Source: an uncultured Gemmatimonadaceae bacterium (GTDB lineage Bacteria; Gemmatimonadota; Gemmatimonadetes; Gemmatimonadales; Gemmatimonadaceae). Taken from it: a stretch of DNA of 64,000 nucleotides. A program made the position numbers and the translations under genes. The stretch lies in contig CAVXGK010000002.1 of the NCBI GenBank assembly GCA_963761305.1, positions 1,216,001 to 1,280,000 of the forward strand, written 5' to 3'. This document shows, piece by piece, positions 33,040-51,996 of the stretch (positions are counted from its first letter, which is position 1; each line of letters opens with the position of its first letter). The notes below the pieces were generated by a model. That model made no database searches. It was not told where the DNA came from and saw nothing but the letters and a program-made list of their open reading frames with translations.

Positions 33040-33915
33040 TCAGGGCACGCCGCCCGCGGCCACCGTTTCGATGGCCTCCGCGCACCGCTTGCCCCACGGA
33101 TTGAACTTGTTCGCGGAGAATCCGGCCTGCCACGTCGACGTCGCCTCGTGACGCTGCGAGTTGAACCAATACGCGCGGCCGAGCTCGAAGTACGCTTCGA
33201 TCAGGTTCGGCCCCAACGCGACGCTCTTCTGGAAAAACGTCTGCGCGTCCTCGAACATCTCCCGCTCGAGGTAGACCAGTCCGAGATAGAAGTGCGCGTA
33301 CAGCGTCGCCTTCTTGTCGTTGTCGAGCCTGATCGCCCGCGACAGATGCTCGATCGCCTCTCCAAAGATACGCTTCTTCAAGCAGATGTAGCCGAGGTTC
33401 ACGCGGGCCAGCGCGTTCATCGGCTCGCGCACGAGCACGCGCTGAAAGCTGACCAACGCGTCGTCGTAGCGGTCCTGCAGCATGAGCGACCAGCCGAGCA
33501 GCGACTCCGCCTGCGCATCACCCGGCGACAGTTCGAGCGCCTTCTTCAGGAACGTGTCGGCTTCGGCGTATTCGCCCGCCGAGATCCTGTGCCACCCCTT
33601 CTCGATGTACGTCGACGCGCCGAGATGGTCGCTGTGCACGGCGCTGTGCACGGCGTCGTGCACGGCGGGCTTGGCGCCGTCGAGATGCGGCGCAACGCCG
33701 CCGCTGTTGGCGCGAACGCCCTTCCACTTCTCGACGAGCGCGAGGACCTCCTCGCGCAGCACACCGAGCTGCTTGTACTCGGCGTCCACTGTCTTGAACA
33801 GCACGCCGATGTCGGCCTTGAGCGCGTCGAGCTTGGCGCCCGCGTCCGGTTCGTCGAGTCGCGCGTCGAGCAGCGCGCGCCGCGCGCGCAACCCGTCCAA
33901 CGATGCCTCCGCCAC
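33040..33915 (-). CDS. Coiled-coil plus TPR protein
   Basis: N-terminal heptads followed by several TPRs (ALELSP, LVREP, AIRLD, VALGP). GGAG 8 nt before the GTG start. Confidence 0.85.
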   Translation of the reverse strand: MAEASLDGLRARRALLDARLDEPDAGAKLDALKADIGVLFKTVDAEYKQLGVLREEVLALVEKWKGVRANSGGVAPHLDGAKPAVHDAVHSAVHSDHLGASTYIEKGWHRISAGEYAEADTFLKKALELSPGDAQAESLLGWSLMLQDRYDDALVSFQRVLVREPMNALARVNLGYICLKKRIFGEAIEHLSRAIRLDNDKKATLYAHFYLGLVYLEREMFEDAQTFFQKSVALGPNLIEAYFELGRAYWFNSQRHEATSTWQAGFSANKFNPWGKRCAEAIETVAAGGVP

Positions 33916-33918
33916 CGA

Positions 33919-34418
33919 CTACGCTCCCCCCCCCCGTCCTGGTCCCAGCTCTGCGCGCCGTGCTCGACGACGATGCGGTCCGCGTTCCACATGACGCGGT
34001 CCACGTCGAGCACGACGACGAGCTGGTCGCGCACTTTCGTCACGGCGCGGAGCACGTCCGTCGCCACGCCCTTGAACAGCGCGGGCGGCGGCGACATCGA
34101 CTCCGCGGGGACGACGGCGACTTCGAGCACCGCGTCGACGATCGCGCCGACGCGCCCGCTGCTCGTGTTGAGGACCAGCGTGCGCGTCTCTGGCGTGATC
34201 GTCGTTTCGGCCAGCTCGATGCGGCGGCGCAGGTCGATCACCGGAATCACTTCGCCGCGATGCTCGGTCACGCCCTCGACCCACTTTGGCACGTCGGGAA
34301 CGCTGTTGGGCGGCGAGTAGCGCAGCACGCGGTCGACCGACAGCACGTCGGCGGCGAACAAATCCACGCCGAGCTGAAAGACGACCAGTTTGACGCCGGC
34401 GACTTTGTCGTTCTTCAT
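33919..34418 (-). CDS. cheW: CheW protein (natural end probably TAG 33919; as sequenced it reads through a G10 tract to 33546)
   Basis: LVVFQLG..VPDVPKWVEGV..RGEVIPVIDLRRR..GAIVDAV..LVVVLDVD. Confidence 0.88.
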
Positions 34419-34885
34419 GGTTTCTCTCCTGTCGGCGTGGCCAGCACGCCGTCGAGCAACGCGTCCACGTCGACCACCCCGATCAGCTCCGAGCCGCGCC
34501 GCACGAGTCCGACCAGCGCGCCGTCCGCGCCGTCGCTCCCGGGCACGCCGCGCAGCTCCGATTCAGCGATCGAGAGCGCGTCGTAGACGTCGTCGACGGC
34601 AAGACCGATGCGGTGTGCGCCGCCGCGCCGGGTGAACACCAGCGTCGCGCCCGGATTCACGCGCGCGTCCGCGGTTCCGCTCCGCGCTCCGAGCAGCGCG
34701 AGCGGGTCGTAGACCGAAAGCAGGTCGCCGCGCAGCGTCGTGACGCCGCGCACGTGTTCCGGAGCATCGGGCATTCGCTGGAGCTCGGGCGATTCGATCA
34801 CCTCATCGACCGCGGCAAGCGAGACCGCGAACCGCTCGCCGCCAACCCGGAAGACGAGAACCCGCGCTACGCCGTCACGGAACAC
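34415..34885 (-). CDS. cheW: CheW-like protein
   Basis: LVFRVGGERFA..VDEVI..PDAPEHVRGV..LRG..GLAVDDV. Confidence 0.88.
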   Translation of the reverse strand: MFRDGVARVLVFRVGGERFAVSLAAVDEVIESPELQRMPDAPEHVRGVTTLRGDLLSVYDPLALLGARSGTADARVNPGATLVFTRRGGAHRIGLAVDDVYDALSIAESELRGVPGSDGADGALVGLVRRGSELIGVVDVDALLDGVLATPTGEKP

Positions 34886-35945
34886 GGTGCACCTCCGTCG
34901 CCATCATTTGCCCGATGAGTCGGCCGATGTCGGGCAGCGGCGCGACGCAGTCGGCGCCGGCCGCCTGGAGCGCGGCGCTCGGCATGCCGAAGATCGTCGC
35001 CGTCTCGCGATCCTGAATCACCGCGCGTCCGCCGACGGCGCGAATCGCGCGCGTTCCGTCGGCGCCGTCGCGACCCATGCCGGTGAGCACCACCGCGAGC
35101 GTCGACGATCCGAACACGCGCGCCGCCGACTGAAAGAGCATGTCCGCGGCCGGCCGCACGCCCCAGACGGGCGGAAGCTCGTCGAGCGTAATCACCGGTC
35201 CGTCGCCATCGTCGCGCACCGTCATGTGGCGGCCGCCCGGCGCGACGTACACGCGTCCATGCACGACCGGTTCGTCCTGTTCGGCTTCCGCGATGCGAAC
35301 GGCGCTCATCGAGTCGAGCCGCTGCGCGAAACTCTTGGTGAATCCGCGCGGCATGTGCTGCACGACGAGCACCGCGGCGGGGAGCGAACGATGCAGGTGC
35401 GGCACGATCGCGGCCAGCGCGCGCGGTCCGCCGGTGGACGCCGCGATGACGACCGCGCTCGACGCCGCCGCGCCGACGAGCGTCGGCCGCTCGACGACGA
35501 TCGGCGTGCGCCGCTGCAGCTGGCGGAGTCCGGCCGGATTCGCCGCGATGGCGGCGCGCAACGCCTCGAGCAATCGCGGCGAGATCGTCGCGAGGTCGAG
35601 ACTGATCTTTCCCGACGGCTTGAGGACGAAGTCGACGGCGCCCAGCTCCAACGCGCGCAGTGTGGCCGCCTGGCCGCCGCTCGTCGTGCCGGCGCTCAAC
35701 ATCACGACCGGGCGCGGCGACTCGCTCATGATGTAGCCGAGCGCGGTCAGCCCGTCGAGCTCCGGCATGTCCACGTCGAGCGTGACGACGTCGGGATTGA
35801 GGGCGTGCACGAGGCCCAGCGCTTCGTACCCGTTGCGCGCGACGCCGGCAACCTCGAACTCGCCCGAGGCCTCGAGGATTTGCGAGATCAGCCGCCGCAT
35901 GAAGGCGCTGTCGTCGACGACGAGGACGCGGCGTTTAGAGGACAC
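34875..35945 (-). CDS. cheB: Chemotaxis methylesterase CheB (REC plus esterase)
   Basis: VVDDSAFMR, LDVDMP, ASTGGP, QHMP, RPAAD, LTGMGRDG and FGMP. Confidence 0.96.
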   Translation of the reverse strand: MSSKRRVLVVDDSAFMRRLISQILEASGEFEVAGVARNGYEALGLVHALNPDVVTLDVDMPELDGLTALGYIMSESPRPVVMLSAGTTSGGQAATLRALELGAVDFVLKPSGKISLDLATISPRLLEALRAAIAANPAGLRQLQRRTPIVVERPTLVGAAASSAVVIAASTGGPRALAAIVPHLHRSLPAAVLVVQHMPRGFTKSFAQRLDSMSAVRIAEAEQDEPVVHGRVYVAPGGRHMTVRDDGDGPVITLDELPPVWGVRPAADMLFQSAARVFGSSTLAVVLTGMGRDGADGTRAIRAVGGRAVIQDRETATIFGMPSAALQAAGADCVAPLPDIGRLIGQMMATEVHRVP

Positions 35946-36432
35946 GCGACCCCTTTCGCACGGAGCGAACCTCGACGCGACCGTCCGTCAGGTAGAAATA
36001 GACGCTGCGGCCGTAGTCGCTCCCCGTATCTTCGCCGACGAGCTCGATGCGGGATTTCGCGAGCGCCGAGCGCACCGCGGCGACGTTGCGCTCGCCGATG
36101 TTGATGCCGCCCACCGTGGCGAAGTTGCTGCCGAACATGCTCGCGCCGCCGGCGATCTTGGCGCGGATACGATTCGGAACGGCGCCGAGCTTTTTCATCT
36201 GCTCCAGCACGAGCGGGACCGCCGTCGCCGGGAACTTGGCCGGATTCGAGCGGTCGCGCGACATCGACTCGCTCGGCAAGAGCACGTGCGCGAGTCCGCC
36301 GACGCGCGCCACCGAGTCGTACAGCACGATCGCCACGCAGGAGCCGAGGCCGACGGTCGTGATCAGACCGTCCGACGCCACCGCATAGTCGGCGACCTTG
36401 ACCCGGACTTCCGCGAAGGAATCGGCGATCAT
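35935..36432 (-). CDS. cheD: Chemoreceptor glutamine deamidase CheD
   Basis: GLGSCVA, HVLLP, AKIAGGASMF, IGERN and DTGSDYGR. ATG 36432 overlaps the cheR stop. Confidence 0.93.
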   Translation of the reverse strand: MIADSFAEVRVKVADYAVASDGLITTVGLGSCVAIVLYDSVARVGGLAHVLLPSESMSRDRSNPAKFPATAVPLVLEQMKKLGAVPNRIRAKIAGGASMFGSNFATVGGINIGERNVAAVRSALAKSRIELVGEDTGSDYGRSVYFYLTDGRVEVRSVRKGSRVL

Positions 36433-37250
36433 CGGCGGCGGAACACCCGTTCGCGCGCGTCCACCGCGGCGAACTTCGCGCGCGACGGGCCCAGCACGGT
36501 TTCGACCTTGCCGAGCACCAGGAAGCCGCCCGGCGCCAGCGCGTCGTGGAACGCGTCGAAGAGACGAATCTGCGTGTCGCGATCGAAGTAGATGAGCACG
36601 TTGCGGCACGCGATCAGGTGCAGCGGTCCGCGCGGCGCCGGAGCGGCCAGCAGATCACGATTCTCGAATCGCACCATCGTTCGCACGGTCGGCGACACGG
36701 TCAACGGCGGCGTCGCCGAGAAGTAGCGCGCCCGCAGGTCGTCCGGCGTGTCGGCGAAGTCGGACTCGGAGAACTGGCCGTGCCGCGCGGCGATCAGCGA
36801 TCGGCGGTCGATGTCGGTCCCGAGCACGTCGACGCGGCTCAAGCGCGACAACTCGCGCCGCTGTTCGGCGTGGCGATGAAAGAGGATCGCGAGCGAGTAG
36901 GGCTCGTGGCCGGAGGAACAGCCGGCGCTCCAGACGCGAATCGTCGAGAGCGGCGCCGACCACAGCGTCGGCACGACGTGCGTCGCCATCGCCCGATAGA
37001 CGTCCCAGTTCCGGAAGAGCTTCGTGACGTTGATCGTGAGAACATCGAGCAGGCGCTCGTACTCCGACGCGTCGCTGTCGAGCACGCGCGAGTACTCGCC
37101 GTAGGTGTTCACGCCGCGCGCGCGCATGCGCACGGCGATGCGCCGCTGCAGGCACTTCTCCTTGTAGCTCGCGCAGCCGAAGCCGCGCTCGACGGAGATC
37201 TTGCGTGTCAGCGCGAGAAAATCGCCGGCCCCCGAGGCTCGGTCGACCAT
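36429..37250 (-). CDS. cheR: Chemotaxis methyltransferase CheR
   Basis: TINVTKLFR, WSAGCSSGHEPYSLA, GTDID and CRNVLIYF. TGATG overlap with the upstream gene. Confidence 0.95.
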   Translation of the reverse strand: MVDRASGAGDFLALTRKISVERGFGCASYKEKCLQRRIAVRMRARGVNTYGEYSRVLDSDASEYERLLDVLTINVTKLFRNWDVYRAMATHVVPTLWSAPLSTIRVWSAGCSSGHEPYSLAILFHRHAEQRRELSRLSRVDVLGTDIDRRSLIAARHGQFSESDFADTPDDLRARYFSATPPLTVSPTVRTMVRFENRDLLAAPAPRGPLHLIACRNVLIYFDRDTQIRLFDAFHDALAPGGFLVLGKVETVLGPSRAKFAAVDARERVFRRR

Positions 37251-38869
37251 CAGTAGGCCTGCCGAACGGACTCGAGGTTCGATCGAACGATGGCGTTGTC
37301 GGGGTCGAGCTCGAGCGCCCGCTCCCAACATCGCAACGCTTCGTCCCGTTCCTGCCGCCGCAGGCGGATGTTCCCGAGCTTGAGATACGTGTCCGGACCG
37401 ATCTCCGGATTGGCGCGCGTGGCCCGCGCGTAGGCTTCGAGCGCTTCGTCGTACCGCGCGGCGCGGTACCGGAGGTCGCCGATGTTCTTGTGCAGATGCG
37501 CGACGCCGGCGTCCTCGTGGAGCCCGCGCTCGGCCGTCGCGAGCGCGGCGTCGTACTCGCCCAATCGCTCCTGGACCGCGGCGAGGTTGTTGTGCAGCGT
37601 GGCGGCGTGTGGATACGCCGTTACGCCGTCAGTGAGGATCGACGCGGCGCGCGGCGCATCACCGACGAGCGCCGCGGCGAGGGCCGCGAAGTGGAACCAG
37701 GCGGCCGTGGGCGGCTTCCGCCCGAAGAGCCCGCGCGCGCCGGCGAGCGCGGCGTCGGCGGCCGAGAGGTCGCCGGTGAGAAGACACACGACGCCGAGCG
37801 ACGTTTGAATGCGCGCGTCCTTGCCGCCGCCGCGCGCGATGGCGTCGTTCAGCGCGGCGCGCGCTTCGTCGTAGCGGTGCTGCTGCTCGAGCACGAACGC
37901 GAGGTTGTGGAACACCGCCGGCTTCGCGTCCAGGCGCGTGACGCATTCCTTGAACGCGGCCGTCGCTTCGTCCCACTTCGCCTGGCGGGCGAGCACGAGC
38001 CCGACGTAGTAGCGCGCCGCCGCGTCGCCGTCGCGCAGCTCGATCACGCGGCGGAACTCGCGCAGCGACTCGTCGAACATCCCCGTCTTGAAGAACGCGA
38101 TCCCGAGGTTGCGATGCTCCTCGGCGCGTCCGTGCGCCGCGACGGCCGGAGCGGGCGCCGTCTTGCCGATGCGATGGATGAAGCTCGCGTTCACCAGCCC
38201 GAGCAGCGCCTTGCCGACCTCGAATTCCACGAGCCCCGACGCGTCGATGATCCCCTGCACGTCGCGCATGCCGTCGACCAGCTCGAGGACGCTCGTCTGT
38301 TCCTCGGTCAACTCGGCGTCGCTCGTCAGGACGCGGTTGCGATTGATCTCGAATACGAGATCGAAGCTTGGGATTTTTTTTTCGACGAGGCTCCACTCGT
38401 CGACCCGGCGCGCCCCCTCGAGCAGCAGCGACTCGGGGGTGATCGACACGATGTAGTCCTGTCCTTCGGGCACGACGTCGGCCTCGAAGTTGAACGTCCC
38501 TTGGTGCCAGGTGAACAGGAAGTAGACGGCCTCGCGAATCTGCACGTCCACCGCCACGCGCAACTGGTCGGGCGAGACGATGCCCTGCTCCACGAGGATC
38601 CGCCCGAGCGGCGTGTCGAGGCGCTTGGCCTGCGCGTCGAGCGCGGCGTCGAGCTGCGCCTGCGTGACGCCCCCGCTCTTCACGAGACGGTCGCCGAGCC
38701 GGTCGCGGCGATTCACGACCGACGCGTAGCAGATCCGCCCCTTGTCGAAGTAGATATAGCCGAAGCTGGCCCGGTGCGTGATGCTCAGGCAGCCGGTCTT
38801 CTTGCCCATCGCGAGGAGTTGGAGAACGTCGGGGAGGCTCGCCTCCTTGAGGTTGCCGCGGATCGCCAT
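37250..38869 (-). CDS. DUF4388 (PATAN-like) domain with an MshEN-like insert and C-terminal TPRs
   Basis: GNLKEASLPDVLQLL..KTGCL..GRI..W..GTFNF..LLLEGARRVDEW, RLGxxL motifs and multiple TPRs. Confidence 0.85.
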   Translation of the reverse strand: MAIRGNLKEASLPDVLQLLAMGKKTGCLSITHRASFGYIYFDKGRICYASVVNRRDRLGDRLVKSGGVTQAQLDAALDAQAKRLDTPLGRILVEQGIVSPDQLRVAVDVQIREAVYFLFTWHQGTFNFEADVVPEGQDYIVSITPESLLLEGARRVDEWSLVEKKIPSFDLVFEINRNRVLTSDAELTEEQTSVLELVDGMRDVQGIIDASGLVEFEVGKALLGLVNASFIHRIGKTAPAPAVAAHGRAEEHRNLGIAFFKTGMFDESLREFRRVIELRDGDAAARYYVGLVLARQAKWDEATAAFKECVTRLDAKPAVFHNLAFVLEQQHRYDEARAALNDAIARGGGKDARIQTSLGVVCLLTGDLSAADAALAGARGLFGRKPPTAAWFHFAALAAALVGDAPRAASILTDGVTAYPHAATLHNNLAAVQERLGEYDAALATAERGLHEDAGVAHLHKNIGDLRYRAARYDEALEAYARATRANPEIGPDTYLKLGNIRLRRQERDEALRCWERALELDPDNAIVRSNLESVRQAY

Positions 38870-38903: not shown

Positions 38904-40826
38904 TCATGGCGCGTCCTCGATGAGACGCGCGGCGGCGTCGGGCCACTGCCAGATGACCTTCTCGCCGTCGAGGAAGAACGGATCGGTCGCCGCCTTGAGC
39001 GCCGCGGCGCGCGCCGGCTCGGTCTCGTCCGGCTCGAGCGCCGCGCGAACGAAGCCGATGGTCACCGGCACCGCCGCCACTTCGGCCGAGGCGACGATCC
39101 GGTTGGCGACGCCGATGATCTCGCGGACGCTCGCGACCGCGCGCTCGGCGAGGTAGCCGAGAATCTCGGCGTTCGGCTCGACGCCGAGGTCGCGCAGGTA
39201 GCGCGCGAAGAGACGCTCGCGTAGCGAGCGGTCGGGTGCCTGCATCGGCACGACCAAGCCGCCCTCGAACCGCGAGCGGAGGCGATCCTCGAGGCCGGAG
39301 AGCTCGCGCGGCGGGCGGTCGCTCGCCAGGACGAGCTGCTTGCCGTCGGCGTACAACGAATTGAAGACGTGAAAGAGCTCTTCCTGCGTGCGCTCCTTGC
39401 CGGCGACGAATTGCACGTCGTCGAGCAGCAGCGCCGACGCGTCGCGATAGCGGGCGCGCCAGCGGTCCACCGTGCCTTCCTGCAGCGCGGCGATCAACTC
39501 GTCGATGAAGAGCTGCGCCGGCACGCAGGCGACCGATCCGCGCCCGGCCGTCGCCGGCACGAGTCCGTGCCCGATCGCGTTCAACAAGTGCGTCTTGCCG
39601 ACGCCGCTCGGCCCGTGAATGAACAGCGGGTTGTAGCGCGTGCCCGGCGCCGACACGACGGCGTCGGCGGCGCGCACCGCCATCTGATTGCTGCCGCCGA
39701 CCTCGAATCCGGAGCGCGTGAACGCCGACGACGGTCCCGCCGGCGGCGACGCGACGCGCAGCGCGCGCTCGAGCACCTGCTCCGCTTCGTCGACGCGATC
39801 GGGATCGCGGAACGCGGGATGGATCGCCATCGACGCGTCGGCGCGCGACGTCTGCCGTTCCAGATCGCGCAGCCGGTTCACGCGCCCTTCGAACTCGCGC
39901 AGGAACGACTCGACGCCGTTCGCCGGCGCGTTCTCCCTCATGGCGCGCTCGAGGCTCGTCGTGCGATAGCCTTCGGCGCCCCAGTACGCGATCGCGTCGG
40001 AGATCCGTTGTCGCCACTGCTCGACGTGCTGCGCCACCGCCGACGCGATGTCGGTGAGGAAGCTCGCGAACTCGCCGCTGGGTCGCGGCGGCGTCACGCG
40101 GCGCCGCTTCTCGGCCAGGTCGCCGAGGACGCTCATCACGTTGTCGGGCGACACCTGCTCGCCGCCGAGCGCCTGGAACGCAATCAGGCGGGTGAGCGCC
40201 CCCTGCAGCTCGCGGACGTTGTCGAACTCGAGCGCGCCGACTTCGTCGATCACGCCGGCGCGGAACCGCATGCCGCGCTCCTCGCACTTGGCTTTGAGGA
40301 TCGCCATGCGCGTTTCATAATCGGGCGCGCCGATGTCGACGATCAGGCCGCCGGCGAGACGCGAGACGAGGCGCTCGTCGACGTCGGCGATGTCGGCGGC
40401 CGGGCGGTCGCTCGTCATCACGATCTGGCGGCCGTCGCCTTGCAGCGCGTTGAAGATCCGCAGCAGCTCGCTCTGCGTTTCCTTCCGCGCCGTGAGGAAT
40501 TGAATGTCATCGATCAGCAGCAGGCCGACGCCGAGGTAGCGCGCCTTGAACGCCTCGGCCGCGCCCTCGGCGATGGCCGCATGCATCTCGCCGACGAACT
40601 CGTCGAGCGTGACGGCGGCGACGGACAGCGGCTGCCGCCGCTGTGCGACGTGATTGCCGATCGCGCTCATCAGGTGCGTCTTGCCGAGCCCCGACCCGCT
40701 GTACATGAAGAGCGGGTTGTACGCCGTGCCCGGCGCCTCGGCCACCGCGTGCGCCGCGGCGACGGCGAGGCGGTTGGCCGAGCCGACGATGAAGTTGTCG
40801 AAGCGGAGCTTCGGATCGAGCTGCAT
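38904..40826 (-). CDS. DnaA/Hda-family protein with two tandem DnaA domain-III AAA+ modules and no domain I or IV
   Basis: Module 1: FDNFIVG, YNPLF..GLGKTHL, IDDIQF, TSDR, RLVSR, NVRELQG. Module 2: YNPLFIHGPSGVGKTHL, LDDVQF, TQEELFHVFN, ASDR, RLRSRF, SVREIIG. Confidence 0.9.
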   Translation of the reverse strand: MQLDPKLRFDNFIVGSANRLAVAAAHAVAEAPGTAYNPLFMYSGSGLGKTHLMSAIGNHVAQRRQPLSVAAVTLDEFVGEMHAAIAEGAAEAFKARYLGVGLLLIDDIQFLTARKETQSELLRIFNALQGDGRQIVMTSDRPAADIADVDERLVSRLAGGLIVDIGAPDYETRMAILKAKCEERGMRFRAGVIDEVGALEFDNVRELQGALTRLIAFQALGGEQVSPDNVMSVLGDLAEKRRRVTPPRPSGEFASFLTDIASAVAQHVEQWRQRISDAIAYWGAEGYRTTSLERAMRENAPANGVESFLREFEGRVNRLRDLERQTSRADASMAIHPAFRDPDRVDEAEQVLERALRVASPPAGPSSAFTRSGFEVGGSNQMAVRAADAVVSAPGTRYNPLFIHGPSGVGKTHLLNAIGHGLVPATAGRGSVACVPAQLFIDELIAALQEGTVDRWRARYRDASALLLDDVQFVAGKERTQEELFHVFNSLYADGKQLVLASDRPPRELSGLEDRLRSRFEGGLVVPMQAPDRSLRERLFARYLRDLGVEPNAEILGYLAERAVASVREIIGVANRIVASAEVAAVPVTIGFVRAALEPDETEPARAAALKAATDPFFLDGEKVIWQWPDAAARLIEDAP

Positions 40827-40839
40827 GATCGACCCGCCG

Positions 40840-41469
40840 CTATCCGGCGCGCGCCGTCACGCGCGGCACCGACGATGGCGTGCCGGCGCTCAGGCGTCTG
40901 AGCACGAGCTCGGAGATCGCGCGCAGCGTCTCGAAGACGCCCGGGCCGTGCAACGCATCGGCCGAAAACTCCGGCACGTCGCGGAAGTTGAGCGCCTCGG
41001 ACAGCGTGGCCGGATCGAGGATCAACTCGCTCGGCAGGTCCTGCTTGTTGTACTGGATGACCAGCGGCACGGCGCGCGCGTCGACGCCCTGGTCGCCGAG
41101 ATTCGCGTGGAGGTCCTGGAAGCTCTCGACGTTTTCATCGAGCTGGCGGCCCTGGCTGTCGGCGACGAAGACGACACCGTCGGCGCCCTGGAGCACGAGC
41201 CTGCGCGTCGTCTGGTAGTAGACCTGGCCGGGGACGGTGTAGAGCTGGAACCGGGTGGTGAAGCCGGAAATGGTGCCGAGATCAAGCGGGAGAAAATCGA
41301 AGAAGAGCGTGCGGTCGGTCTGCGTCGCCAACGACACCATCCGGCCGCGGCGGTCGGCGGGCACCTGGCTGTAGATGTAGTGCAAGTTCGTCGTCTTTCC
41401 GGACCGGCCCGGTCCGTAGTAGACGATCTTGCACGTGATCTCTCTGGTGGCGTAGTTGACGAGGGACAC
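40840..41469 (-). CDS. mglA: Ras-like GTPase MglA
   Basis: [38 protein letters not shown] and NKQD. Confidence 0.95.
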
Positions 41470-41589: not shown

Positions 41590-42081
41590 TCATCGTCCCT
41601 CCCAGCGGTCGGACTGGCGAAAGAGCGCGGACAGATTCCGGTTGAGGTCGTCCTCGAAGTTGCCGGCCAGCGCGACCGCGGCCGGCGGCTCCGCGGTGCG
41701 GGCCGCCTCGGCCAGCTCGCGCTCGAGTTCCGTGAAGTAGATGCGGATCAAACCGAGCGACGTCTGGTCGTCGAACACCGTGAAACAGATGTACGCGCCG
41801 CGCGACGTCTGGAGCGGCGCCAGATACATCTGCTTCTCCGGGCCCGCGTAGTGCAGCCCGGCGAACGCGCGGCCGTCGACCTGGCGGCCAAGTTCTCCCG
41901 CCGTCGCGTGCACCGCGGACGCCAGCGCGCACGCCGTCATCACGTCCACTTCGCGCGTGAACCCGGCCTGCGCCAAGACCTGCCCCGTCGGATGGAGCAG
42001 CAGCGCGAGACGCGCGCGCGCGTCGTCGACGAACCGCCGCAGCGGCGCTTCGACCCACGGCTCGACCGCGGCGATCTTCAT
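41590..42081 (-). CDS. mglB: MglB-like roadblock/LC7 protein (probable GAP)
   Basis: Roadblock pattern LLLHPTGQVLA and FDDQTSLGLIR; adjacent to mglA. Confidence 0.8.
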   Translation of the reverse strand: MKIAAVEPWVEAPLRRFVDDARARLALLLHPTGQVLAQAGFTREVDVMTACALASAVHATAGELGRQVDGRAFAGLHYAGPEKQMYLAPLQTSRGAYICFTVFDDQTSLGLIRIYFTELERELAEAARTAEPPAAVALAGNFEDDLNRNLSALFRQSDRWEGR

Positions 42082-42428
42082 GCGAGCATCTCCAGCGCCT
42101 TGAACAGCTCCACCCGAATCAGCCCGACGTTCGCCGCGGGGTCGGCAACGGTCACGATCACCAGGTCGTTCCCTCCGCCCGCCACGCAAATGCAACCGCG
42201 CTCCGCGTCGAGCTGCAGGAACGTCACCGCTCCGAGCCGCGCCGCCTGCGCCGACAACCGCGCCTTGCGATACACGGACGCGGCGAGCGCCGCGACACGC
42301 TCGCCGTCCTGGCCAAAACGGAGACTGGAATCGATGACGAGCCCGTCACTCTCGGAGACGATCAAGCTCGCCCGCACGCCACGCTGGCGAGTCAGCACAT
42401 CGAGCACGGGCCGCATGGACGTGCTCAC
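42078..42428 (-). CDS. Roadblock/LC7 domain protein
   Basis: GVRASLIVSESDGLVID..AALAA..ANVGLIR. GTG start overlaps the upstream stop. Confidence 0.85.
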   Translation of the reverse strand: MSTSMRPVLDVLTRQRGVRASLIVSESDGLVIDSSLRFGQDGERVAALAASVYRKARLSAQAARLGAVTFLQLDAERGCICVAGGGNDLVIVTVADPAANVGLIRVELFKALEMLA

Positions 42429-43288
42429 GGCGCGCCCGCGCCGTCGATTCGCCCGTCGCGAAGCCACGCCGAGGCCCGCGCGGCGCACCGGTCGAGCAGG
42501 CGCCGCAGGAGCCCGAGCGGCGTGACCTTCGACGCCGCGACGACGAGGAGACCGCCGTCGTCGCTCCGCGTCATCGCCACGACGCTCCCACGCGTCTCGA
42601 ACGTGATCGACTGCCACTCGCCGACGTCCAGATACTTCGTCGATCGCTGCACTTCGTCGGAGATTCCGCTCAACTGTGCGCCGACGTCCTGCGACAAATC
42701 GGCGCCGTTGGCGTCGACGTACACGCCGCCCAGCACCAAGCCGCTGGCGTCGAGCAGGAGCGCCGTCTGCCCCTCCTCGGTCAGCAGGCTCGCGAAGAGA
42801 CGCCGCGGATCGTTCGACGACGCGGGTGGCGCGAACGCGCTCGTTTGCGGAGAAGGCACCGCCTCATCGGGCACAGCCACGTGGGTGCCAGACGCCCGCC
42901 GCACCGTGCGCAGCGCGCCCGCGACCGAGGCCCCCCCGCCGCCGCTCGCCGCGGCGCCGGTCAAATACCGCTCGGCGTCGTCGACGCGACCTTCCTGAAA
43001 GCTGAGATATCCGAGTCCCTTCATCGCCCCCGCGTGATCGGGAACGATTCGAAGCACGGCGTTCCATTCGTCGCGGGCGCGCGCGAGGTCGCCGCGATCG
43101 ACCGCGACGCGCGCGAGTAAGTCGTGCGCGTCCGCGTTGTGCGGGTGCCGCTCGAGCCCGCGCAGCGCGACTTTGCTCGCGAGCTCGAACTGTCGCTGCC
43201 GGCGCAGCGCGTCGCCAAGCTGAAGGAACACCAGGCTCCCCGGCTCGCGCGCGAGCTCTTCGCTCCAGCGGCGGATGTCGTCAACCAT
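42425..43288 (-). CDS. TPR plus roadblock/LC7 fusion protein
   Basis: N-terminal TPRs (PGSLVFLQLGD, GLERHP, LRIVPD) and C-terminal ALLLDASGLVL..TPLGLLR. Confidence 0.8.
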   Translation of the reverse strand: MVDDIRRWSEELAREPGSLVFLQLGDALRRQRQFELASKVALRGLERHPHNADAHDLLARVAVDRGDLARARDEWNAVLRIVPDHAGAMKGLGYLSFQEGRVDDAERYLTGAAASGGGGASVAGALRTVRRASGTHVAVPDEAVPSPQTSAFAPPASSNDPRRLFASLLTEEGQTALLLDASGLVLGGVYVDANGADLSQDVGAQLSGISDEVQRSTKYLDVGEWQSITFETRGSVVAMTRSDDGGLLVVAASKVTPLGLLRRLLDRCAARASAWLRDGRIDGAGAP

Positions 43289-44225
43289 TGGCGTGCACCT
43301 CGAGCACCCGCTCGAGTCGCGCGAGCGCGTCGAGCGCGTCGCGCGCTTCGAGGGCGACGGTGCCGGCCGGCTCACGGCGCAGCAGCTGCTCGACCGCGTG
43401 GCGGGCGGCGCTCACGTGTGCGGCGACGCCAGTCGGCGGCGAACCAGTGGGCGACCACGCTCGCGCCCGCGCGACGGCGGATGGTTCGACGTTCTTTCGA
43501 ATCGTGACGACGCCGGTCGTGGCCAGCCCATACGCGATCTTGGCCGTCTCGAACTCGTCGCGGGTCAGCAGCGCGGCGATCGCGCGCAGGTCGCGCTCGC
43601 CGTCGATCATCGTCAGGACCTGCCACTCGTGCGGGAGCAGGTCGAGCGTCGTGCCGCCGTCGTGCTCTTCGCCCATCGGTGCAAGCTCGGGCACGACGTT
43701 CAGGCTCGGCACCACGTCGGCGATGCGCGACCATTCGTCGATGCGCCGCGCGCCTTCCATGAGCAGGGATTCGGTCGAGACGGCGATGCGCGGGTCGCGC
43801 GGCATCTCCTCACGCGCGCGTTCTTCGAACGAGAAAAACCCCTCGCGCCACGACATCAGCTCGAATACCACGCTCTCGATCTGCAACCGCAAGTGCCGCT
43901 CGAGCTCGCGCTGGGTGATCGCCCCGAGGCGAACGAGCGAATCGACGATGGTCCGCGCACCCGCGACCCCATTGCCCTCGGTCGACGCGTGCGCGCGATC
44001 GAGATCGGCTTGCGTGATCCGCCCCGCCTCCAGCAATACGAGCTCCGTCGGCACGCTCTTGCTGCGGATCGACGCGTGCACGACGCGGCCGCCGTCGAAG
44101 TGGACGACGCCCTCGTCCTCGCGCAGCTTCGACGATACGCACAGGAGTCCCGTCTTCCGGCTCAGGTCGAGCAGCTGGAAGACGTCGTGGATGCCGAGCT
44201 CGCGAAGCGGACCTTCGATCGCCAT
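43281..44225 (-). CDS. DUF4388 domain protein
   Basis: GPLRELGIHDVFQLL..KTGLL..GRVVHA..WREGFFSF..LLMEGARRIDEW. Paralogous to the N-terminal half of 37250-38869. Confidence 0.85.
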   Translation of the reverse strand: MAIEGPLRELGIHDVFQLLDLSRKTGLLCVSSKLREDEGVVHFDGGRVVHASIRSKSVPTELVLLEAGRITQADLDRAHASTEGNGVAGARTIVDSLVRLGAITQRELERHLRLQIESVVFELMSWREGFFSFEERAREEMPRDPRIAVSTESLLMEGARRIDEWSRIADVVPSLNVVPELAPMGEEHDGGTTLDLLPHEWQVLTMIDGERDLRAIAALLTRDEFETAKIAYGLATTGVVTIRKNVEPSAVARARAWSPTGSPPTGVAAHVSAARHAVEQLLRREPAGTVALEARDALDALARLERVLEVHANG

Positions 44226-44227
44226 GG

Positions 44228-46987
44228 TCAGCCCGTTCGCAGCGTGAGAATGTGCTGCAGCTCGGAGGCGCTGCGCAGATCGCGACGCGCGCGCCGAGCG
44301 AACGACGATGCGGGATCGAGCGCGATCACGCGGCGCCAGCGTTCGGCCGCCTCGCGGAAGCGGTGCTGTTCCGCCAGCAACGCGCCCTCGAAGTACAGCG
44401 CGCCGACGTTCCCCGGATCGAACCGCAGCACCCGCGCGAACGCATGGCTCGCGTCGCGCCGGCGATCGAGCTCGATCAGCGTCTCACCGAGCGCGATGAG
44501 CGCGTCGAAGTTGTACGGATCGCGCTCCAGCATTTCGATCAGCAGCGGCATGGCGTCGCTCGGGCGACTCAGCCGGCGTCGAAGCGCCGCGAGCGCGAGC
44601 GTCGCTTCGGCGTAGGTCGGCACCGCGTCGAGCGCCGCGACCAACTCGTGCTCGGCTTCGCGATCGCGGCCTTGCGACTGCAACAGATCCGCGAGCCGGA
44701 AGCGCACGACGGCGAAATCCTCGTCCACCTCGAGCGCGAGCCGGTACATCTCGATCGCGCGGTCGATGTCGCCGATCGACTGCGCGATGTCGCCCGTACG
44801 CAGCAACACGTCGGCCCGCCGCGGCGAGATCCGCCGCGCACGGTTGAGCAGCTCGAGCGCCGCCACCGGATCGCCGGAATCCGCGCACGCCTCCGACGCG
44901 AGCATCAGCGCGTCGACGTCGTTCGCGTCCCGCGCCACCAACAGCTGCGCGATCGGACGCGCCTCGGCCCCGCGCCCCAGTCGCAGGAGCGCCATCGCCT
45001 CGCCGGCAAGCGCCTGCGGACGATCCGGAACGATCGCCAGCGCAGCGCGAAAGCGCTCCAGCGCTTCGCCGAACAAGCCCTGTTTCGCGAAGATCTCGCC
45101 GAGGATCGTCATCCCCATGGCGCGGTCCTCGCCGCGCGCCAGCGCGCGCGCGACCTCGGCCGACGCCCGGTCGAAGTAGCCCTTCGACAAGTAGTCCGCC
45201 GCCATCGCGAACGGCGACCGGTCGCTCGCGCGCCGCGCACGCGGCCGCTCGGACTCTTCTTCGCTCGATGGTTTCGCATCCGGCGCCGCTGTGGTGGCCG
45301 GCGCCGACTCGGCCGGCGCGGCGGGCGCCAGCTCCGTGAACAGCGTGTCGAGAGAGCCGGGATCGAAATCGAAGTCCTCGACGACCGCGTCCTCGTGCGC
45401 GCCGCCGAGGTCGGGCGGCACCGTGAGGTCGGGGTCTTCGTACTCGACGTCCATCGCCAACTCGAACTTCTGCGCCACGTAGTACGGTTCCAGCTCGAGC
45501 GCGCGCTTGGTTTCGCGCAGCGCGCCCTCGAAGTCGCCGAGATTCGAGAGCGTGAAGCTCATGTTGTAGTGCGCTTCGGCGAAGTCGGGTCGCGCCTGGA
45601 TCGCGCGCGCGAAGGCGCCGCGGGCGTCGTCGTACCTGTGGAGCTCGGCGAGCACGAGGCCGACGCCGTTCCATGCTACCGGATGCTCGGCCGCCGAGCG
45701 CAACACGCGGCGATACGACTCGAGCGCGTGCTGGAATCGCTTGGCGCGGCTCATGAGCAGCGCCAGGTTGAGACGCGCCTTGACGAATTCGGGCCGATGC
45801 TCGAGCGCCGCGTTGAACGCGGCGAGCGAGTCCTCCGATTTTCCGCTGTGGTAGAGCGCCACGCCGAGGTTGTTCCGTGCGATCGCGTACGACGGCTCGG
45901 CGTCCAGCGCGCGCCGATAGCTCGACTCGGCGTCGGCGAAGCGTCCTTCCTGGTGCATCGCCACGCCGCGCTCGTTCCACAGCTTGGGGCTGTGCGGCTG
46001 GCGGCGCAGCAGATCGTCGTACAGCCCGATCGCCTCGCCGGGTTGGCGCAACAGCAGATGCACTTCGGCCATCGCCTGTAACACGAGGTCGCGGTCTTCG
46101 CCCCGGTCGAGCGCGACGCCGTACTCGCGCATCGCTTCGGCGTAGTAGCCCTTGCTGCGGAACGCGAGGCCCAGGTTGTAGTGCGCGAGCTGTCCGTCGA
46201 CCGACACCTGCAGCTCTCGCTTCGGCTGGCCGTTCGCCGCGTCGCGGCCCCGCTGTTGCTCGAGCGACAGATTCGCGTGCGCGCGCGACAGCGACGGATT
46301 CAGCTTGATGGCGCGGCGCGTGGCCGCCTGCGCGTCCTCGTGGCGTCCGATGTCGCCGAGGACGAAGCCCATCAGGTACAGGGCGTCGTGGTTCTCCGGA
46401 TTCAACGCGATCGCGCGCTCGAGTGCGCGCAACGCGTCGTCGTTCAGGCCGCGGTGATAGAGGATCTCGCCGAGCGTGAAGTGCAGCAGCGAGCTGTCCG
46501 GATCGCGGGCCAGCGCGCGTTCGATGCATTCCTGCGCGCGCTCCATGTCGCCCGAGTGCTTCTCGGCGAGCGCGAGCTGCAGCAGGGCCGCGACGTCGTT
46601 CGGCGCGTACTCGAGGAGGGCGCGGAACTCGTTCGCTGCGTCGTCCTGCTTGCCGAGCAGCGAGAACGTGCGGCCCAACTCCCAGCGCGCTTCGCGGTCG
46701 TCGGGCCGGGCCCGGAGACGCTCGCGCAGCTCGGGCACCCGTGTGTCGTAGTAGCCGGTGTTGAAGTACGCGATCTCGAGGTTGCGCTGCGCGACCTGCA
46801 TCGTGTGGTCGAGCTCGAGCGCCTTCATGAAGGCGGCGACCGCCTCCTGATACAGCCCCTTGTTGTAGTAGAGAACGCCGAGGTTGTTGTGCGCGCCGGC
46901 GTCCGACGGATCGATCCGCCGGGCGAAGGAGCGAAGGACCTCGCGGTCCCGCTCCGACGTCAGTGGGGCCGGCGGGATCATGATCAC
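44228..46987 (-). CDS. Large cytoplasmic multi-TPR scaffold (919 aa)
   Basis: Many TPRs (AHNNLG, AHYNLG, LWNERG, ARNNLG, AWNGVG) split by an acidic/Pro-rich linker. No signal peptide. Confidence 0.88.
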   Translation of the reverse strand: MIMIPPAPLTSERDREVLRSFARRIDPSDAGAHNNLGVLYYNKGLYQEAVAAFMKALELDHTMQVAQRNLEIAYFNTGYYDTRVPELRERLRARPDDREARWELGRTFSLLGKQDDAANEFRALLEYAPNDVAALLQLALAEKHSGDMERAQECIERALARDPDSSLLHFTLGEILYHRGLNDDALRALERAIALNPENHDALYLMGFVLGDIGRHEDAQAATRRAIKLNPSLSRAHANLSLEQQRGRDAANGQPKRELQVSVDGQLAHYNLGLAFRSKGYYAEAMREYGVALDRGEDRDLVLQAMAEVHLLLRQPGEAIGLYDDLLRRQPHSPKLWNERGVAMHQEGRFADAESSYRRALDAEPSYAIARNNLGVALYHSGKSEDSLAAFNAALEHRPEFVKARLNLALLMSRAKRFQHALESYRRVLRSAAEHPVAWNGVGLVLAELHRYDDARGAFARAIQARPDFAEAHYNMSFTLSNLGDFEGALRETKRALELEPYYVAQKFELAMDVEYEDPDLTVPPDLGGAHEDAVVEDFDFDPGSLDTLFTELAPAAPAESAPATTAAPDAKPSSEEESERPRARRASDRSPFAMAADYLSKGYFDRASAEVARALARGEDRAMGMTILGEIFAKQGLFGEALERFRAALAIVPDRPQALAGEAMALLRLGRGAEARPIAQLLVARDANDVDALMLASEACADSGDPVAALELLNRARRISPRRADVLLRTGDIAQSIGDIDRAIEMYRLALEVDEDFAVVRFRLADLLQSQGRDREAEHELVAALDAVPTYAEATLALAALRRRLSRPSDAMPLLIEMLERDPYNFDALIALGETLIELDRRRDASHAFARVLRFDPGNVGALYFEGALLAEQHRFREAAERWRRVIALDPASSFARRARRDLRSASELQHILTLRTG

Positions 46988-47601
46988 GCGACGTGGATCG
47001 CCTTGAGGATGGCGCCGAGCGACGCCGTGTCGGGAAGCAGCAGGAAGAAGCCGCGCAGCTTCTCGTCGGACTGGTTCAGCACGAAGTCGCTCTCGACGCA
47101 GAAGACGAAGTCACGGTCCCCGCCGAACTGGAGGTACGCCGTCGTGAGCACGGCGTCGGACATGTCGATCGCCAGCGCCGGCGGCGACGGAATGAGCATC
47201 ATGCCCATGAAGTCGCTCAGCGCGTTCATGTAGGCGGAGCTGAGGATGTTGCCCGCTTCCTTGATCGCCGACTGCTGCATGTCGGAGAAGTCGTCGCTGG
47301 GCTCGCGGCGGTGCAGCAGCAGCTCGGCGAGCCGCATCGCGGTGCGCCGCGGGAACACGAGCAGCGTGCGGCCCGTGAGATCGCCGAGCATGTGCATCAG
47401 CACCGCGGCCACCGGCTCGTCCGGCGTCGTGATGTGCGGCGGCACCTCTTCCAGGCGCGCGACGCTGATTTTCGGCACGCTGATCATGATCGTCTCGCCG
47501 ATCATCTGCGACAGCGCCGTCGCCGCGTGGCCGGCGCCGATGTTGGCCACCTCGCGGAGCGCGTCGAGCTGCAGCGCTTTCAACGAAAGAAGATCTTCCA
47601 T
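46984..47601 (-). CDS. cheC: CheY-P phosphatase CheC
   Basis: Two D/S-xxx-E-xx-N motifs (DALREVANIG, SAIKEAGNIL) and FFLLLPD. Confidence 0.93.
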   Translation of the reverse strand: MEDLLSLKALQLDALREVANIGAGHAATALSQMIGETIMISVPKISVARLEEVPPHITTPDEPVAAVLMHMLGDLTGRTLLVFPRRTAMRLAELLLHRREPSDDFSDMQQSAIKEAGNILSSAYMNALSDFMGMMLIPSPPALAIDMSDAVLTTAYLQFGGDRDFVFCVESDFVLNQSDEKLRGFFLLLPDTASLGAILKAIHVA

Positions 47602-47610
47602 ATCAATCCT

Positions 47611-49623
47611 TTAAAGGAGGCTGCTGACGTCGACGATGAGCGAAGGCCGGCCGTCGCCGAGGAGCGTGGCGCCCCCGAAGAACGGCGGTCCGTCTCGCAC
47701 CGCGTCGTACTGCTTCACGACGATCTCTTCCTGTCCGGTGAGCTCGTCGATGACGAGCCCCGCCCGGCGATCGCCGAGGTCGATCACCACCACGTGCTCG
47801 AGGTCGATCTCCGTCGGCGGGTCGTACGCCGGCAGCCCGACCAACGACCGCAGCCGAAGCAGCGGCAGCACTTCGTCGCGCGCGAGCAGGACTTCCTTGC
47901 CCTTCACCGTGCGCAGCACGTCGGGCGTCAGCTCGACGGTCTCGCTCACGTGGGCCTGCGGGATCGCGTACGTCTCGCCGCCGACCCGCGCCAGCAGCGC
48001 GCGCATGATGGCCAGCGTCAACGGAAGCCGGATCACCACCGTCGTTCCCTGCCCCGGCACCGAGCGGATGTCCATCGCGCCGCCGAGCGAGCGCACCTTC
48101 GTGTAGACCGCGTCCACGCCGACGCCGCGCCCCGACAATCCCGTCACCTGCTCCGCCGTCGAGAACCCCGGCCGCGCGAGCAGCCGGAGCAGCTCGTCTT
48201 CGGTGAGCTCGGTCTTCGTCGGTTCGACCAGCCCGTCGCGCTTGGCGCGCTCGAGGACGCGCTCGCGGTCGATGCCCTTGCCGTCGTCACTGACCTTGAT
48301 CACGACCGCCGAACGGTCGCGCACCGCGCTCAAGACGAGACGGCCCACGGCCGGCTTGCCGAGAGCGGCGCGAACGTCGGGACGCTCGATGCCGTGGTCC
48401 ACCGCGTTGCGCAGCAGATGGACCAGCGAGTCTGCGATCTCGTCGAGCATCGACCGATCGAGCTCGATGTCCTTGCCTTCGACGACGAAGTCGACCGGCT
48501 TGCCCAGCCCGCGCGACGCGTCGCGCACGACGCGCGGAAACCGGTCGAACACCTGCGACACCGGAATCATGCGGCTCGCCGTGATCTCGTCGCGCAGATC
48601 GGTGATGAGGCGCGACGACTGCATCACCGCCTCTTCCAGCGCGAGATCGCCGAGCTGGCCGGCGAGCTGCGTCAGACGGCCGCGCGCGATCACCAGCTCG
48701 CCGATGAGATTCATCAGCGCGTCGAGGCGCCGCACGTCGATGCGCATCGAGCGCACGCGGCCGCTCTCCGACCGCGTCTCGCTGGCCGGCGTCACGGCCA
48801 CGCCGTGCGCCGGCGTGAGCGTCATCGCCGACAACGCCGCCATGTCGTGCGCCGGCGTCATGGTGATCGCCGGCATGCTCCACGACGGCGTCAGCGCCGG
48901 CCACGCGCCGGAGCGACGCGGTTCGCCGACCTGCACCTCGAGCACGTCGCCCATTCCCCGCACCACGCTCTCGATCTCGGTGGACGAGCACGACGCGGCA
49001 AGGCGGACGGTGAACTCGGTGTCGAAATTTTCGGCCTGGAGCTCGATGAGCGGCGGCGTCGTCGACACGACCTCACCGATCGAGCGCAGCGCCTGCACGA
49101 TGAGGAACGCGCGCACGCCGCGCAGCGGCGTCTCCGGCTTGAGCCAGATGCGCACCGCTTCGCCGGTGCCGGACGGCGACACCAGGGAGTCGTCGGTCGC
49201 GGCGGGAATCGCCACGGTCTCGCGCCGCGCGGCGGGAGTGGTCGTCAGCGCGCGCAGCGCGGTGATGAGGTCCGGTGCGACGACGTCGCCTTCATGCCCC
49301 GCGACCGCCGCCTCGACCGCGTGCTCGAGCACGTCGGCGGAGCGGAACAGCGTGTCCATGATCGTCGCTTCGATCGACAGCTCGCCGCGGCGCACGCAGT
49401 CGAGCACTGTCTCGAGCTCGTGCGCGAGATCGGCGACGACGGTATAGCCCATCGTCGCCGCCATTCCCTTGATCGTGTGGACCGAACGGAAAATCGCGCC
49501 GACCGCCGATGCGGCGTCGGGGCCGGTCGCATCGCGCTCCAGCTGGAGCAGCGATTGGTTGACGGCGGCGACGTGCTCTCGGCTCTCGGTGAGAAAGAGC
49601 TGGGCGTACTCGCGATTATCCAC
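47611..49623 (-). CDS. cheA: Chemotaxis histidine kinase CheA (P1-P5)
   Basis: FRSVHTIKGMA, LDALMNLIGELVI, HLLRNAVDHGIE, DDGKG, GFST, SGRGVG and LPLTLAI. Confidence 0.97.
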   Translation of the reverse strand: MDNREYAQLFLTESREHVAAVNQSLLQLERDATGPDAASAVGAIFRSVHTIKGMAATMGYTVVADLAHELETVLDCVRRGELSIEATIMDTLFRSADVLEHAVEAAVAGHEGDVVAPDLITALRALTTTPAARRETVAIPAATDDSLVSPSGTGEAVRIWLKPETPLRGVRAFLIVQALRSIGEVVSTTPPLIELQAENFDTEFTVRLAASCSSTEIESVVRGMGDVLEVQVGEPRRSGAWPALTPSWSMPAITMTPAHDMAALSAMTLTPAHGVAVTPASETRSESGRVRSMRIDVRRLDALMNLIGELVIARGRLTQLAGQLGDLALEEAVMQSSRLITDLRDEITASRMIPVSQVFDRFPRVVRDASRGLGKPVDFVVEGKDIELDRSMLDEIADSLVHLLRNAVDHGIERPDVRAALGKPAVGRLVLSAVRDRSAVVIKVSDDGKGIDRERVLERAKRDGLVEPTKTELTEDELLRLLARPGFSTAEQVTGLSGRGVGVDAVYTKVRSLGGAMDIRSVPGQGTTVVIRLPLTLAIMRALLARVGGETYAIPQAHVSETVELTPDVLRTVKGKEVLLARDEVLPLLRLRSLVGLPAYDPPTEIDLEHVVVIDLGDRRAGLVIDELTGQEEIVVKQYDAVRDGPPFFGGATLLGDGRPSLIVDVSSLL

Positions 49624-49650
49624 GGCGCTTGGGTCGCACGCGGACCGTGC

Positions 49651-50013
49651 TCACCCGAGCACGCGCTGCACCGCCTCGAGGACGCGACTGGGTTGGAACG
49701 GCTTGACGACGAAGTCCTTCGCGCCGGCTTGAATCGCTTCGACGACGAGCGCCTGCTGCCCCATGGCGCTGCACATGAGGATTTTCGCGCCCGGGTCGAA
49801 CTTGCAGATCTCGCGCACGGCATCGATGCCGCCCATGTCGGGCATCACGATGTCCATGGTCACGAGATCCGGCCGCAGCTCCCGGTACTTCTCTACCGCT
49901 TGAACGCCCGTCTCGGCCTCGCCGACGATCTCGAACCCGGCTTGGGTGAGAATGTCGCCTACCATCGTGCGCATGAAGATGGCGTCGTCGCAGACCAGTA
50001 CTGTGTGACTCAC
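49651..50013 (-). CDS. cheY: Chemotaxis response regulator CheY
   Basis: VCDDAIFMR, TMDIVMP, CSAMGQQ and KPF, resembling Bacillus/Thermotoga CheY. GGAGG ribosome-binding site. Confidence 0.94.
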   Translation of the reverse strand: MSHTVLVCDDAIFMRTMVGDILTQAGFEIVGEAETGVQAVEKYRELRPDLVTMDIVMPDMGGIDAVREICKFDPGAKILMCSAMGQQALVVEAIQAGAKDFVVKPFQPSRVLEAVQRVLG

Positions 50014-50033
50014 GGGAACATGCCTCCAAAGAC

Positions 50034-51980: not shown

Positions 51981-51996
51981 GTCGGGCGTTTCGCGC

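Follow-up and report, generated by a model that had tools for sequence, protein, structure and literature searches.

The gene at positions 38904..40826 on the minus strand of the window, the whole 64,000-nucleotide stretch analysed, encodes a 640-amino-acid protein with two DnaA domain III modules in tandem, as seen in its open reading frame, Pfam matches and structure model. Judged by its sequence, the protein is a real and conserved variant of the initiator clade of AAA+ proteins and, by their defining features, is neither DnaA nor Hda. The best-supported role is likely that of an ATP-switched adaptor on a PATAN–TPR protein that itself likely binds c-di-GMP. In its full form, to which a probability of roughly 55% is assigned, this reading holds that a DnaA paralogue with two ATPase modules would dock through an acidic helix and a C-terminal motif on a DUF4388–MshEN–TPR protein, and would act as a self-contained ATP switch in c-di-GMP-gated pilus or polarity signalling.

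The reading frame starts with ATG and runs from 40826 to 38904. Two Bac_DnaA stretches were matched by Pfam (E 6e-106), and neither Bac_DnaA_C nor DnaA_N gave a match in the protein (nine Pfam families at E<=0.001), which bears out the proposal of the initial annotation that two domain III modules are present with no domain I or IV. Domain I is absent, module 1 beginning at residue 3 and the homologues at the same place. Modules 1 (amino acids 1-237, 40116..40826, minus strand) and 2 (amino acids 364-600, 39027..39737, minus strand) are 41% identical to each other over 206 residues and 39% and 42% identical to the DnaA of the same genome. Walker B, SDR, RLxSR and VRE are found in both modules, as are the Walker A strings reported earlier, SGSGLGKT in module 1 and GPSGVGKT in module 2. 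The Ser singled out in the first of these is present but occupies a variable position (Ser in 63, Gly in 31 and Ala in 17 of 111 homologues), and module 2, which had been called canonical, does carry GPSGVGKT, yet across the family the better-kept ATP site is that of module 1. The protein had also been taken to end at WPD; that string is present, but ten more residues follow and the chain ends in ...RLIEDAP. The C-terminal motif (amino acids 613-640, 38907..38990, minus strand), with E622, K623, W628, P629, R634 and E637, is the most constant part of the family.

An AlphaFold2 model built from an alignment of the 111 homologues had a mean pLDDT of 90.6 and a pTM of 0.54, a value at which the relative placement of the two modules is not fixed. 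Both modules and the linker domain were modelled confidently, and the hinge at residues 242-263 and the tail after residue 600 were not. The top structural matches of the model were DnaA domain III structures (TM 0.93 to 8bv3_A, rmsd 1.8 Å, 44% identity). The linker, described earlier as helical, does contain a helical domain (amino acids 250-362, 39741..40079, minus strand) but opens with a flexible hinge (242-263, pLDDT<50), the folded domain following after it. This domain is a bundle of no named family: its structural matches were generic helical bundles (best Z 6.1, rmsd 3.7, 109 residues aligned), Pfam and PDB sequence searches with it returned no match of note, and an ESM Atlas search with the linker alone gave no usable match, whereas the whole protein matched clusters commonest in Gemmatimonadota. 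A diverged domain IV was considered as its origin and ruled out (probability of a linker–domain IV match 0.3%). No domain IV helix-turn-helix was found elsewhere in the protein either, the model ending in a short low-confidence tail, and the single Bac_DnaA_C match in the genome is the true dnaA. Near the start of the linker lies an acidic amphipathic helix (amino acids 251-270, 40017..40076, minus strand), which has low confidence in the monomer model and is retained in ATPase-less mini forms of the gene.

The conclusion that the protein is not an initiator, already drawn in the initial annotation, is upheld by the missing domains I and IV and by a complete canonical DnaA of 461 amino acids, with domain IV, encoded directly upstream of dnaN at a distance of about 1.9 Mb along the contig that also carries the window (L001:1420-2805, G000:C2). 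The tandem protein nevertheless scores higher than the real DnaA against TIGR00362 (519.7 versus 504.4 bits), so that annotation pipelines mislabel it, often as a "chromosomal replication initiator". The residues that bind the DnaA-trio are N187, I190, I193, R202, E228 and K222 (PMC10721633). With residues counted in 111 double-form homologues and B. subtilis numbering throughout, module 1 has N187 replaced by Glu, Gln, Asp or Gly and I190 mostly by His (79 of 111), and F230 and H231 are replaced by Leu and Arg (104 each). Its ATP site, by comparison, is conserved: K157 (111), the Walker B Asp pair (111), sensor I (108), sensor II (109) and its own arginine finger (106) are retained, and these catalytic residues ruled out the idea that module 1 is dead.

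Module 2 has the reverse character. Its donor face is conserved (R264 finger 108, R260 108, E228 109, R202 105, F230 100 and N234 87 of 111), and its own ATP site is decayed in many relatives (K157 99, sensor I 72, sensor II 84); of the trio residues, N187 is Asp or Glu and the others are largely retained. Forms from family f7 have lost Walker A and Walker B of module 2 while keeping the finger box, with a donor-face score of 11-12 of 12. Hda acts on the nucleotide site of DnaA through its arginine finger and Box VI residues (PMC5397184), and module 2 therefore looks like a finger donor of the Hda type. From the sequences, the simplest acceptor for this finger would be module 1; as module 1 is without the residues for single-stranded DNA, the two together would serve as an ATPase switch rather than open origins.

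This pairing was examined by comparing one locus per genus across 31 genera, using residue sets that were chosen by the analysts. The module 1 site score was positively correlated with the module 2 donor score (rho 0.57; mean 10.7 versus 6.5), a correlation that rests on six low-scoring genera, mostly of f2, which as kin are non-independent, and to which general decay may contribute because the module 1 donor score tracks the module 1 site score equally (rho 0.57). The module 2 site score and the module 1 donor score showed no correlation (rho -0.05). Where module 1 is eroded, the donor face of module 2 is eroded as well, whereas DnaA is nearly invariant at the same sites (11.9 of 12).

That last comparison bears on a replication role. 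Under this alternative the protein would be a tethered regulator whose module 2 donates its finger to ATP-DnaA, as Hda does, or caps DnaA filaments, with the c-di-GMP/polarity partner setting where and when. Module 2 does have the face for it, a finger with the Box VI Phe and Asn (100 and 87 of 111), which we map to F230 and N234 by inference from PMC5397184, and no separate Hda was found in the genome (93% complete), which holds only three Bac_DnaA matches. The N-terminal clamp-binding motif of Hda is QLSLF/QLSLPL (PMC5397184). A pentamer of this kind occurs in only 1 of the 111 homologues, a chance-like match inside a module and not at the N-terminus; the N-terminal QLDP, also tried as a clamp motif, is not conserved and was ruled out. 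Domain II of canonical DnaA begins with QMD(L/F/M/I)F in 21 of 21 Gemmatimonadales, compared with 0 of 9 genomes of other orders (L195-L215). Judged by QLSLF, this pentamer resembles sliding-clamp-binding motifs, and with it on DnaA an Hda would need no clamp motif of its own. Gemmatimonas species, moreover, divide by both fission and budding (PMC7844134).

Against this, the pentamer is kept in lineages whose tandem-type gene has lost the modules, and it is absent from the nine other-order DnaAs, most of whose genomes have modules. Loss or decay affects module 2 more often than any other part, module-1-only forms exist, its donor face erodes together with module 1 while DnaA stays nearly invariant, and no replication gene was found by Pfam in the operon. 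A regulator of replication is on balance rather unlikely. The earlier suggestion that the protein caps or inactivates DnaA thus keeps the Hda-like face and the missing Hda in its favour, but is weakened by the repeated loss of the modules while the gene stayed and by a donor face that follows the ATP site of module 1 rather than the invariant DnaA. More speculative still, and improbable in our view, is that RIDA has been rewired in the Gemmatimonadales: the clamp motif would have moved to DnaA and the finger donor would be the tandem paralogue, tethered to a c-di-GMP receptor within the MglA/Che polarity operon, and initiation in budding cells would thereby be licensed directly by c-di-GMP and the identity of the pole.

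All genes of the surrounding operon lie on the minus strand, in the order cheW-like, cheY, cheA, cheC, TPR, DUF4388, TPR-Roadblock, Roadblock, MglB-like, mglA and the tandem-DnaA gene, followed by DUF4388–MshEN–TPR, cheR, cheD, cheB, cheW, cheW and TPR. The first four occupy 46984..50477 and include the only cheA of the genome, the cheW-like gene (50034-50477) being named from its likeness to the other two cheW. They are followed by a 919-amino-acid TPR protein (44228..46987, Pfam), another DUF4388 protein, whose MshEN-like stretch is degenerate (43281..44225; 18.6 bits, below the cut-off), the TPR-Roadblock, Roadblock and MglB-like genes (41590..43375; profile matches with approximate starts) and a small GTPase gene of the mglA type (40840..41469), which we take to be mglA from its motifs and neighbourhood. 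The genes cheR, cheD, cheB, two cheW and a 291-amino-acid TPR protein (33040..37331, Pfam) close the series. The second cheW frame (33546-34418) is 290 amino acids long and shares about 370 nt with the TPR gene that follows, its CheW domain ending near residue 143. A scan for promoters and terminators gave nothing informative inside the operon. Upstream of rluD, at 51432-52617, lie two tandem lspA-like genes, seen likewise in L119, L257 and L258. The mglA of the operon is the second of two paralogues in the genome, is separate from another mglB-mglA pair, canonical in appearance, that adjoins recR/dnaX-like genes (L255:6807-7970), and is present in most Gemmatimonadales.

As had been reported, mglA lies directly upstream of the tandem gene, ending 13 nt before it, and among 80 close loci it precedes the tandem gene in all 76 that reach that far. 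The initial annotation had raised an ATPase repurposed for the MglA module, and the gene does sit inside an MglA/Che operon. That the protein is a direct effector of the adjacent GTPase, or regulates it directly, is nevertheless very doubtful. In 12 loci of f7 and in L157 the order is rluD, tandem-DnaA gene, partner and peptidase gene, with no mglA or che gene between (L157 has an extra TPR gene between partner and peptidase gene); mglA likewise does not adjoin the gene in L161 or in the g10 and g160 loci, and elsewhere it persists beside mini forms that have no ATPase module. Six of the 80 close loci are without cheA, cheC, cheR, cheD, cheB and cheW. In f7 (L136, L138, L160-L168) a peptidase-MA gene comes after the pair, often with a response regulator, and the whole Che/MglA block is absent. 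The DUF4388–TPR gene, by comparison, follows in 80 of 80 close loci, and the constant neighbour is this downstream DUF4388(PATAN)–MshEN–TPR gene, not mglA.

The partner gene (37250..38869, minus strand) encodes 539 amino acids that, from Pfam and profile matches, comprise a DUF4388/PATAN domain (PF14332, 134 bits) with an MshEN insert, followed by TPR repeats. The MshEN motif consists of two 24-residue motifs, 53 residues in all (PMC5013675), and the tandem motif of the partner (amino acids 57-110, 38540..38701, minus strand) scores 53.4 bits against NF053729, for which the cut-off is 38. Its second repeat fits the relaxed pattern given in PMC5013675, and the first departs from it at one position, with Gly for a hydrophobic residue. 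Directly upstream of the partner, 205 of 205 loci have a gene that encodes the linker, the C-terminal motif or both. These comprise 203 loci of the main survey plus L158 and L167, remain from 209 partner loci after four were dropped at contig edges, and are not all distinct genomes, because named records and locus handles may overlap; the 209 already exclude duplicate loci from a single genome, a broken copy and two loci that are unpublished. Stop and start of the two genes overlap by one base in 133 of the 203, compared with a 34-nt gap in the window. No fusion of the two was found among 264 candidates of 1121-3200 amino acids, which is weak evidence, and in an analysis of covariation between the C-terminal motif and the partner (208 pairs, Neff 130) the top pairs were scattered.

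The tandem gene is conserved across the class Gemmatimonadetes. The 80 close loci come from genome contigs, 76 titled Gemmatimonadota and four only "bacterium". A search of 301 genomes of the phylum gave strong full-length matches in families f1-f4 and part of f7, and single-module forms in f5 and f8. Unpublished genomes (G155, G180, G055, G095, G313, G460 and G442) entered some raw tallies, but the counts used in the argument do not depend on them. Searches with the partner found none in the genomes examined of f6 (10), f9 (3), f10 (7) and f11 (3), and only weak TPR matches in two of three f12 genomes; second weak DnaA-like matches occur in some of the f6 and f9-f12 genomes where no partner was found. 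In a quick tree of 98 rows, built from 35 of the 111 homologues and 28 DnaAs, a single branch set each of the three groups apart from the rest, namely module 1, module 2 and DnaA (35, 35 and 28 rows; SH-aLRT 99, 99 and 97); lacking an outgroup from other phyla, the tree is silent on origin and order. It fits an old, vertically inherited paralogue, and its module-wise split, with the full-length form in 155 loci, ruled out an assembly artefact or a recent duplication.

Those 155 loci, out of 203, hold the double form with both modules. Module 1 with linker and tail occurs in six of the 203, and also in L158 and the edge-cut L225; the linker and tail only are left in five (g137, g160), and 24 hold mini forms, the remainder being frameshifted, cut at an edge or without the middle of the linker. 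Single-module forms are found at L119, L120, L155, L156, L157 (module 1 and tail), L158, L175 and L226 and are frequently without the finger or sensor II. Module-1-only forms thus exist, and no intact module-2-only form was seen among the loci examined. The mini proteins, of 60-80 amino acids, consist only of the acidic helix and the C-terminal W-P motif, with one Phe, one Trp and two Glu invariant in 14 aligned sequences. A mini profile matched 1073 public proteins of 33-121 amino acids, of which the best 120 are 60-84 amino acids long; fragments may occur among the rest. In the genomes the mini genes (L235:2802-2981, L260:6732-6923, L117:10278-10484 and others) are annotated as hypothetical proteins or missed, and the gene, at first thought absent from g5, g10, g18 and g21, is present there in mini form. 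Between the mini gene and the partner of L117 lies a short tandem repeat (10485-10592) of 15-nt units that reads MRDAS several times. Both ATPase modules have been lost repeatedly while the gene persisted, and, the modules being dispensable and the helix and tail retained, the conserved core of the family is two short peptides. That both have low confidence in the model fits, we infer, the usual look of partner-binding segments.

In one clade, loss of the modules goes with a change in the partner. Partners without MshEN were found at 23 loci (g5, g10, g21, g145), all 23 behind mini forms, and no ATPase-bearing form stands beside an MshEN-less partner among the loci surveyed. The missing stretch is exactly 53 residues (55-107) in the nine partners measured and lies at the same place in the others; the last TPR region is also missing in 22 of the 23, one being cut. 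In a five-marker tree of 36 loci, in which g145 was not placed, nine MshEN-less rows form one clade (SH-aLRT 100), and the co-loss therefore counts as one event. L117 holds an independent mini form, its partner keeping MshEN and having an internal TPR deletion, and the partners of the five linker-only forms keep MshEN, degenerate in g160. In genera g9 and g151 (L101, L102, L142-L144, L232) the partner has a degenerate second MshEN repeat although both ATPase modules are present, and several g9 forms are without the lid of module 2. A link between the ATPase modules and c-di-GMP sensing is suggested by this pattern, not statistically established.

Decay and loss of this kind would also suit a structural scaffold, in which the DnaA folds oligomerise head to tail and cluster the partner, with nucleotide bound and its hydrolysis carrying no signal. 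Catalytic motifs decay in several lineages, the modules can vanish, mean pairwise identity is 0.55 and 0.47 in the modules compared with 0.70 in DnaA domain III, and module 1 keeps its own finger. The scaffold remains a poor bet, however, with the full catalytic set of module 1 and the finger of module 2 each kept in >95% of the 111 double forms, which is more than binding alone should need. In the adaptor reading, the acidic helix and C-terminal motif would be the docking elements, the module 2 finger would complete the ATP site of module 1, whether in the same chain or in another copy, the partner would bind c-di-GMP, and the ATP state of the module pair would alter the clustering or availability of the partner.

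The output of such a switch would be the type IV pilus motor, on which the PATAN domain of the partner, with MglA and the Che pathway where present, would act. PATAN is the same as DUF4388; it binds PilB1/PilC in Synechocystis and co-occurs with GspE_N domains and mglAB (10.1101/2021.06.11.447907), and in Myxococcus MglA acts on PilB through a TPR protein (PMC7519303). Binding of PilB/PilC by PATAN is known only from cyanobacterial members. The genome holds three PilT-family genes, a pilB-pilT-pilC cluster, two MCPs, nine GGDEF matches, one cheA and a second mglBA pair; its only two MshEN matches are PilB and the partner, and FliG gave no match. Some relatives are flagellated (PMC7844134), so the output need not be pili. 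In f7, two to four PilT-family genes were found in 12 of 12 genomes with the pair and none or one in 26 of 26 without it, a pattern that may reflect genome reduction and that fails outside f7, where f6 and f9-f12 genomes in which no pair was found often have two or three PilT-family genes and, in f8, a single genome that does have the pair yielded none.

The tandem protein was compared with the systems it most resembles. With DnaA domain III (B. subtilis 8BV3/8BTG, T. maritima 2Z4R, A. aeolicus 2HCB/3R8F) the copy in the window shares the fold and all AAA+ motifs, and it differs in having two modules in one chain with no domain I, II or IV, N187 and I190 replaced in module 1, an extra helical domain and the C-terminal motif, and in being encoded away from dnaN and dispensable. 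Like Hda of E. coli RIDA (5X06), it is a DnaA-type AAA+ protein without a DNA-binding domain, with a finger-donor face in module 2 whose own ATP site decays; unlike Hda, it is tandem, has no clamp-binding pentamer, probably contains its own acceptor module and scores 176.9 against TIGR03420, below the cut-off of 194.8, and its single-module relatives often have no finger. In joining a c-di-GMP motif pair and PATAN/DUF4388 to an ATPase and type IV pili, the system resembles MshE of V. cholerae, PilB and the PATAN regulator PixE of Synechocystis. It differs from them in that a separate TPR protein carries MshEN, as an insert within its PATAN domain, and in that the ATPase coupled to it belongs to the initiator clade and not to the secretion ATPases. 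A piliated cell with MglA, Roadblock proteins, TPR scaffolds and a Che pathway is shared with the MglA/MglB-SgmX-Frz system of Myxococcus xanthus, from which the present system differs in its single operon, its DnaA-derived protein and a predicted c-di-GMP input, the Myxococcus polarity module being described as c-di-GMP-independent (PMC7519303). Group 1 MglA has been recorded for Gemmatimonadetes, and DnaA and DUF4388 go unmentioned in the portion of that source drawn upon (PMC4316618). Among the papers listed in literature searches, none described this protein or the operon.

DnaA-type AAA+ modules are known from DNA transactions, as in DnaA, Hda, DnaC/DnaI and IstB. Here such a module appears to have moved into second-messenger and polarity signalling in an abundant class of soil bacteria, and its labelling as a DnaA initiator is a trap for annotation. 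The natural deletion series, with two, one or no ATPase modules down to a 60-amino-acid core, names the likely binding peptides, and with it the mechanism would be cheaply testable in cultured Gemmatimonas.
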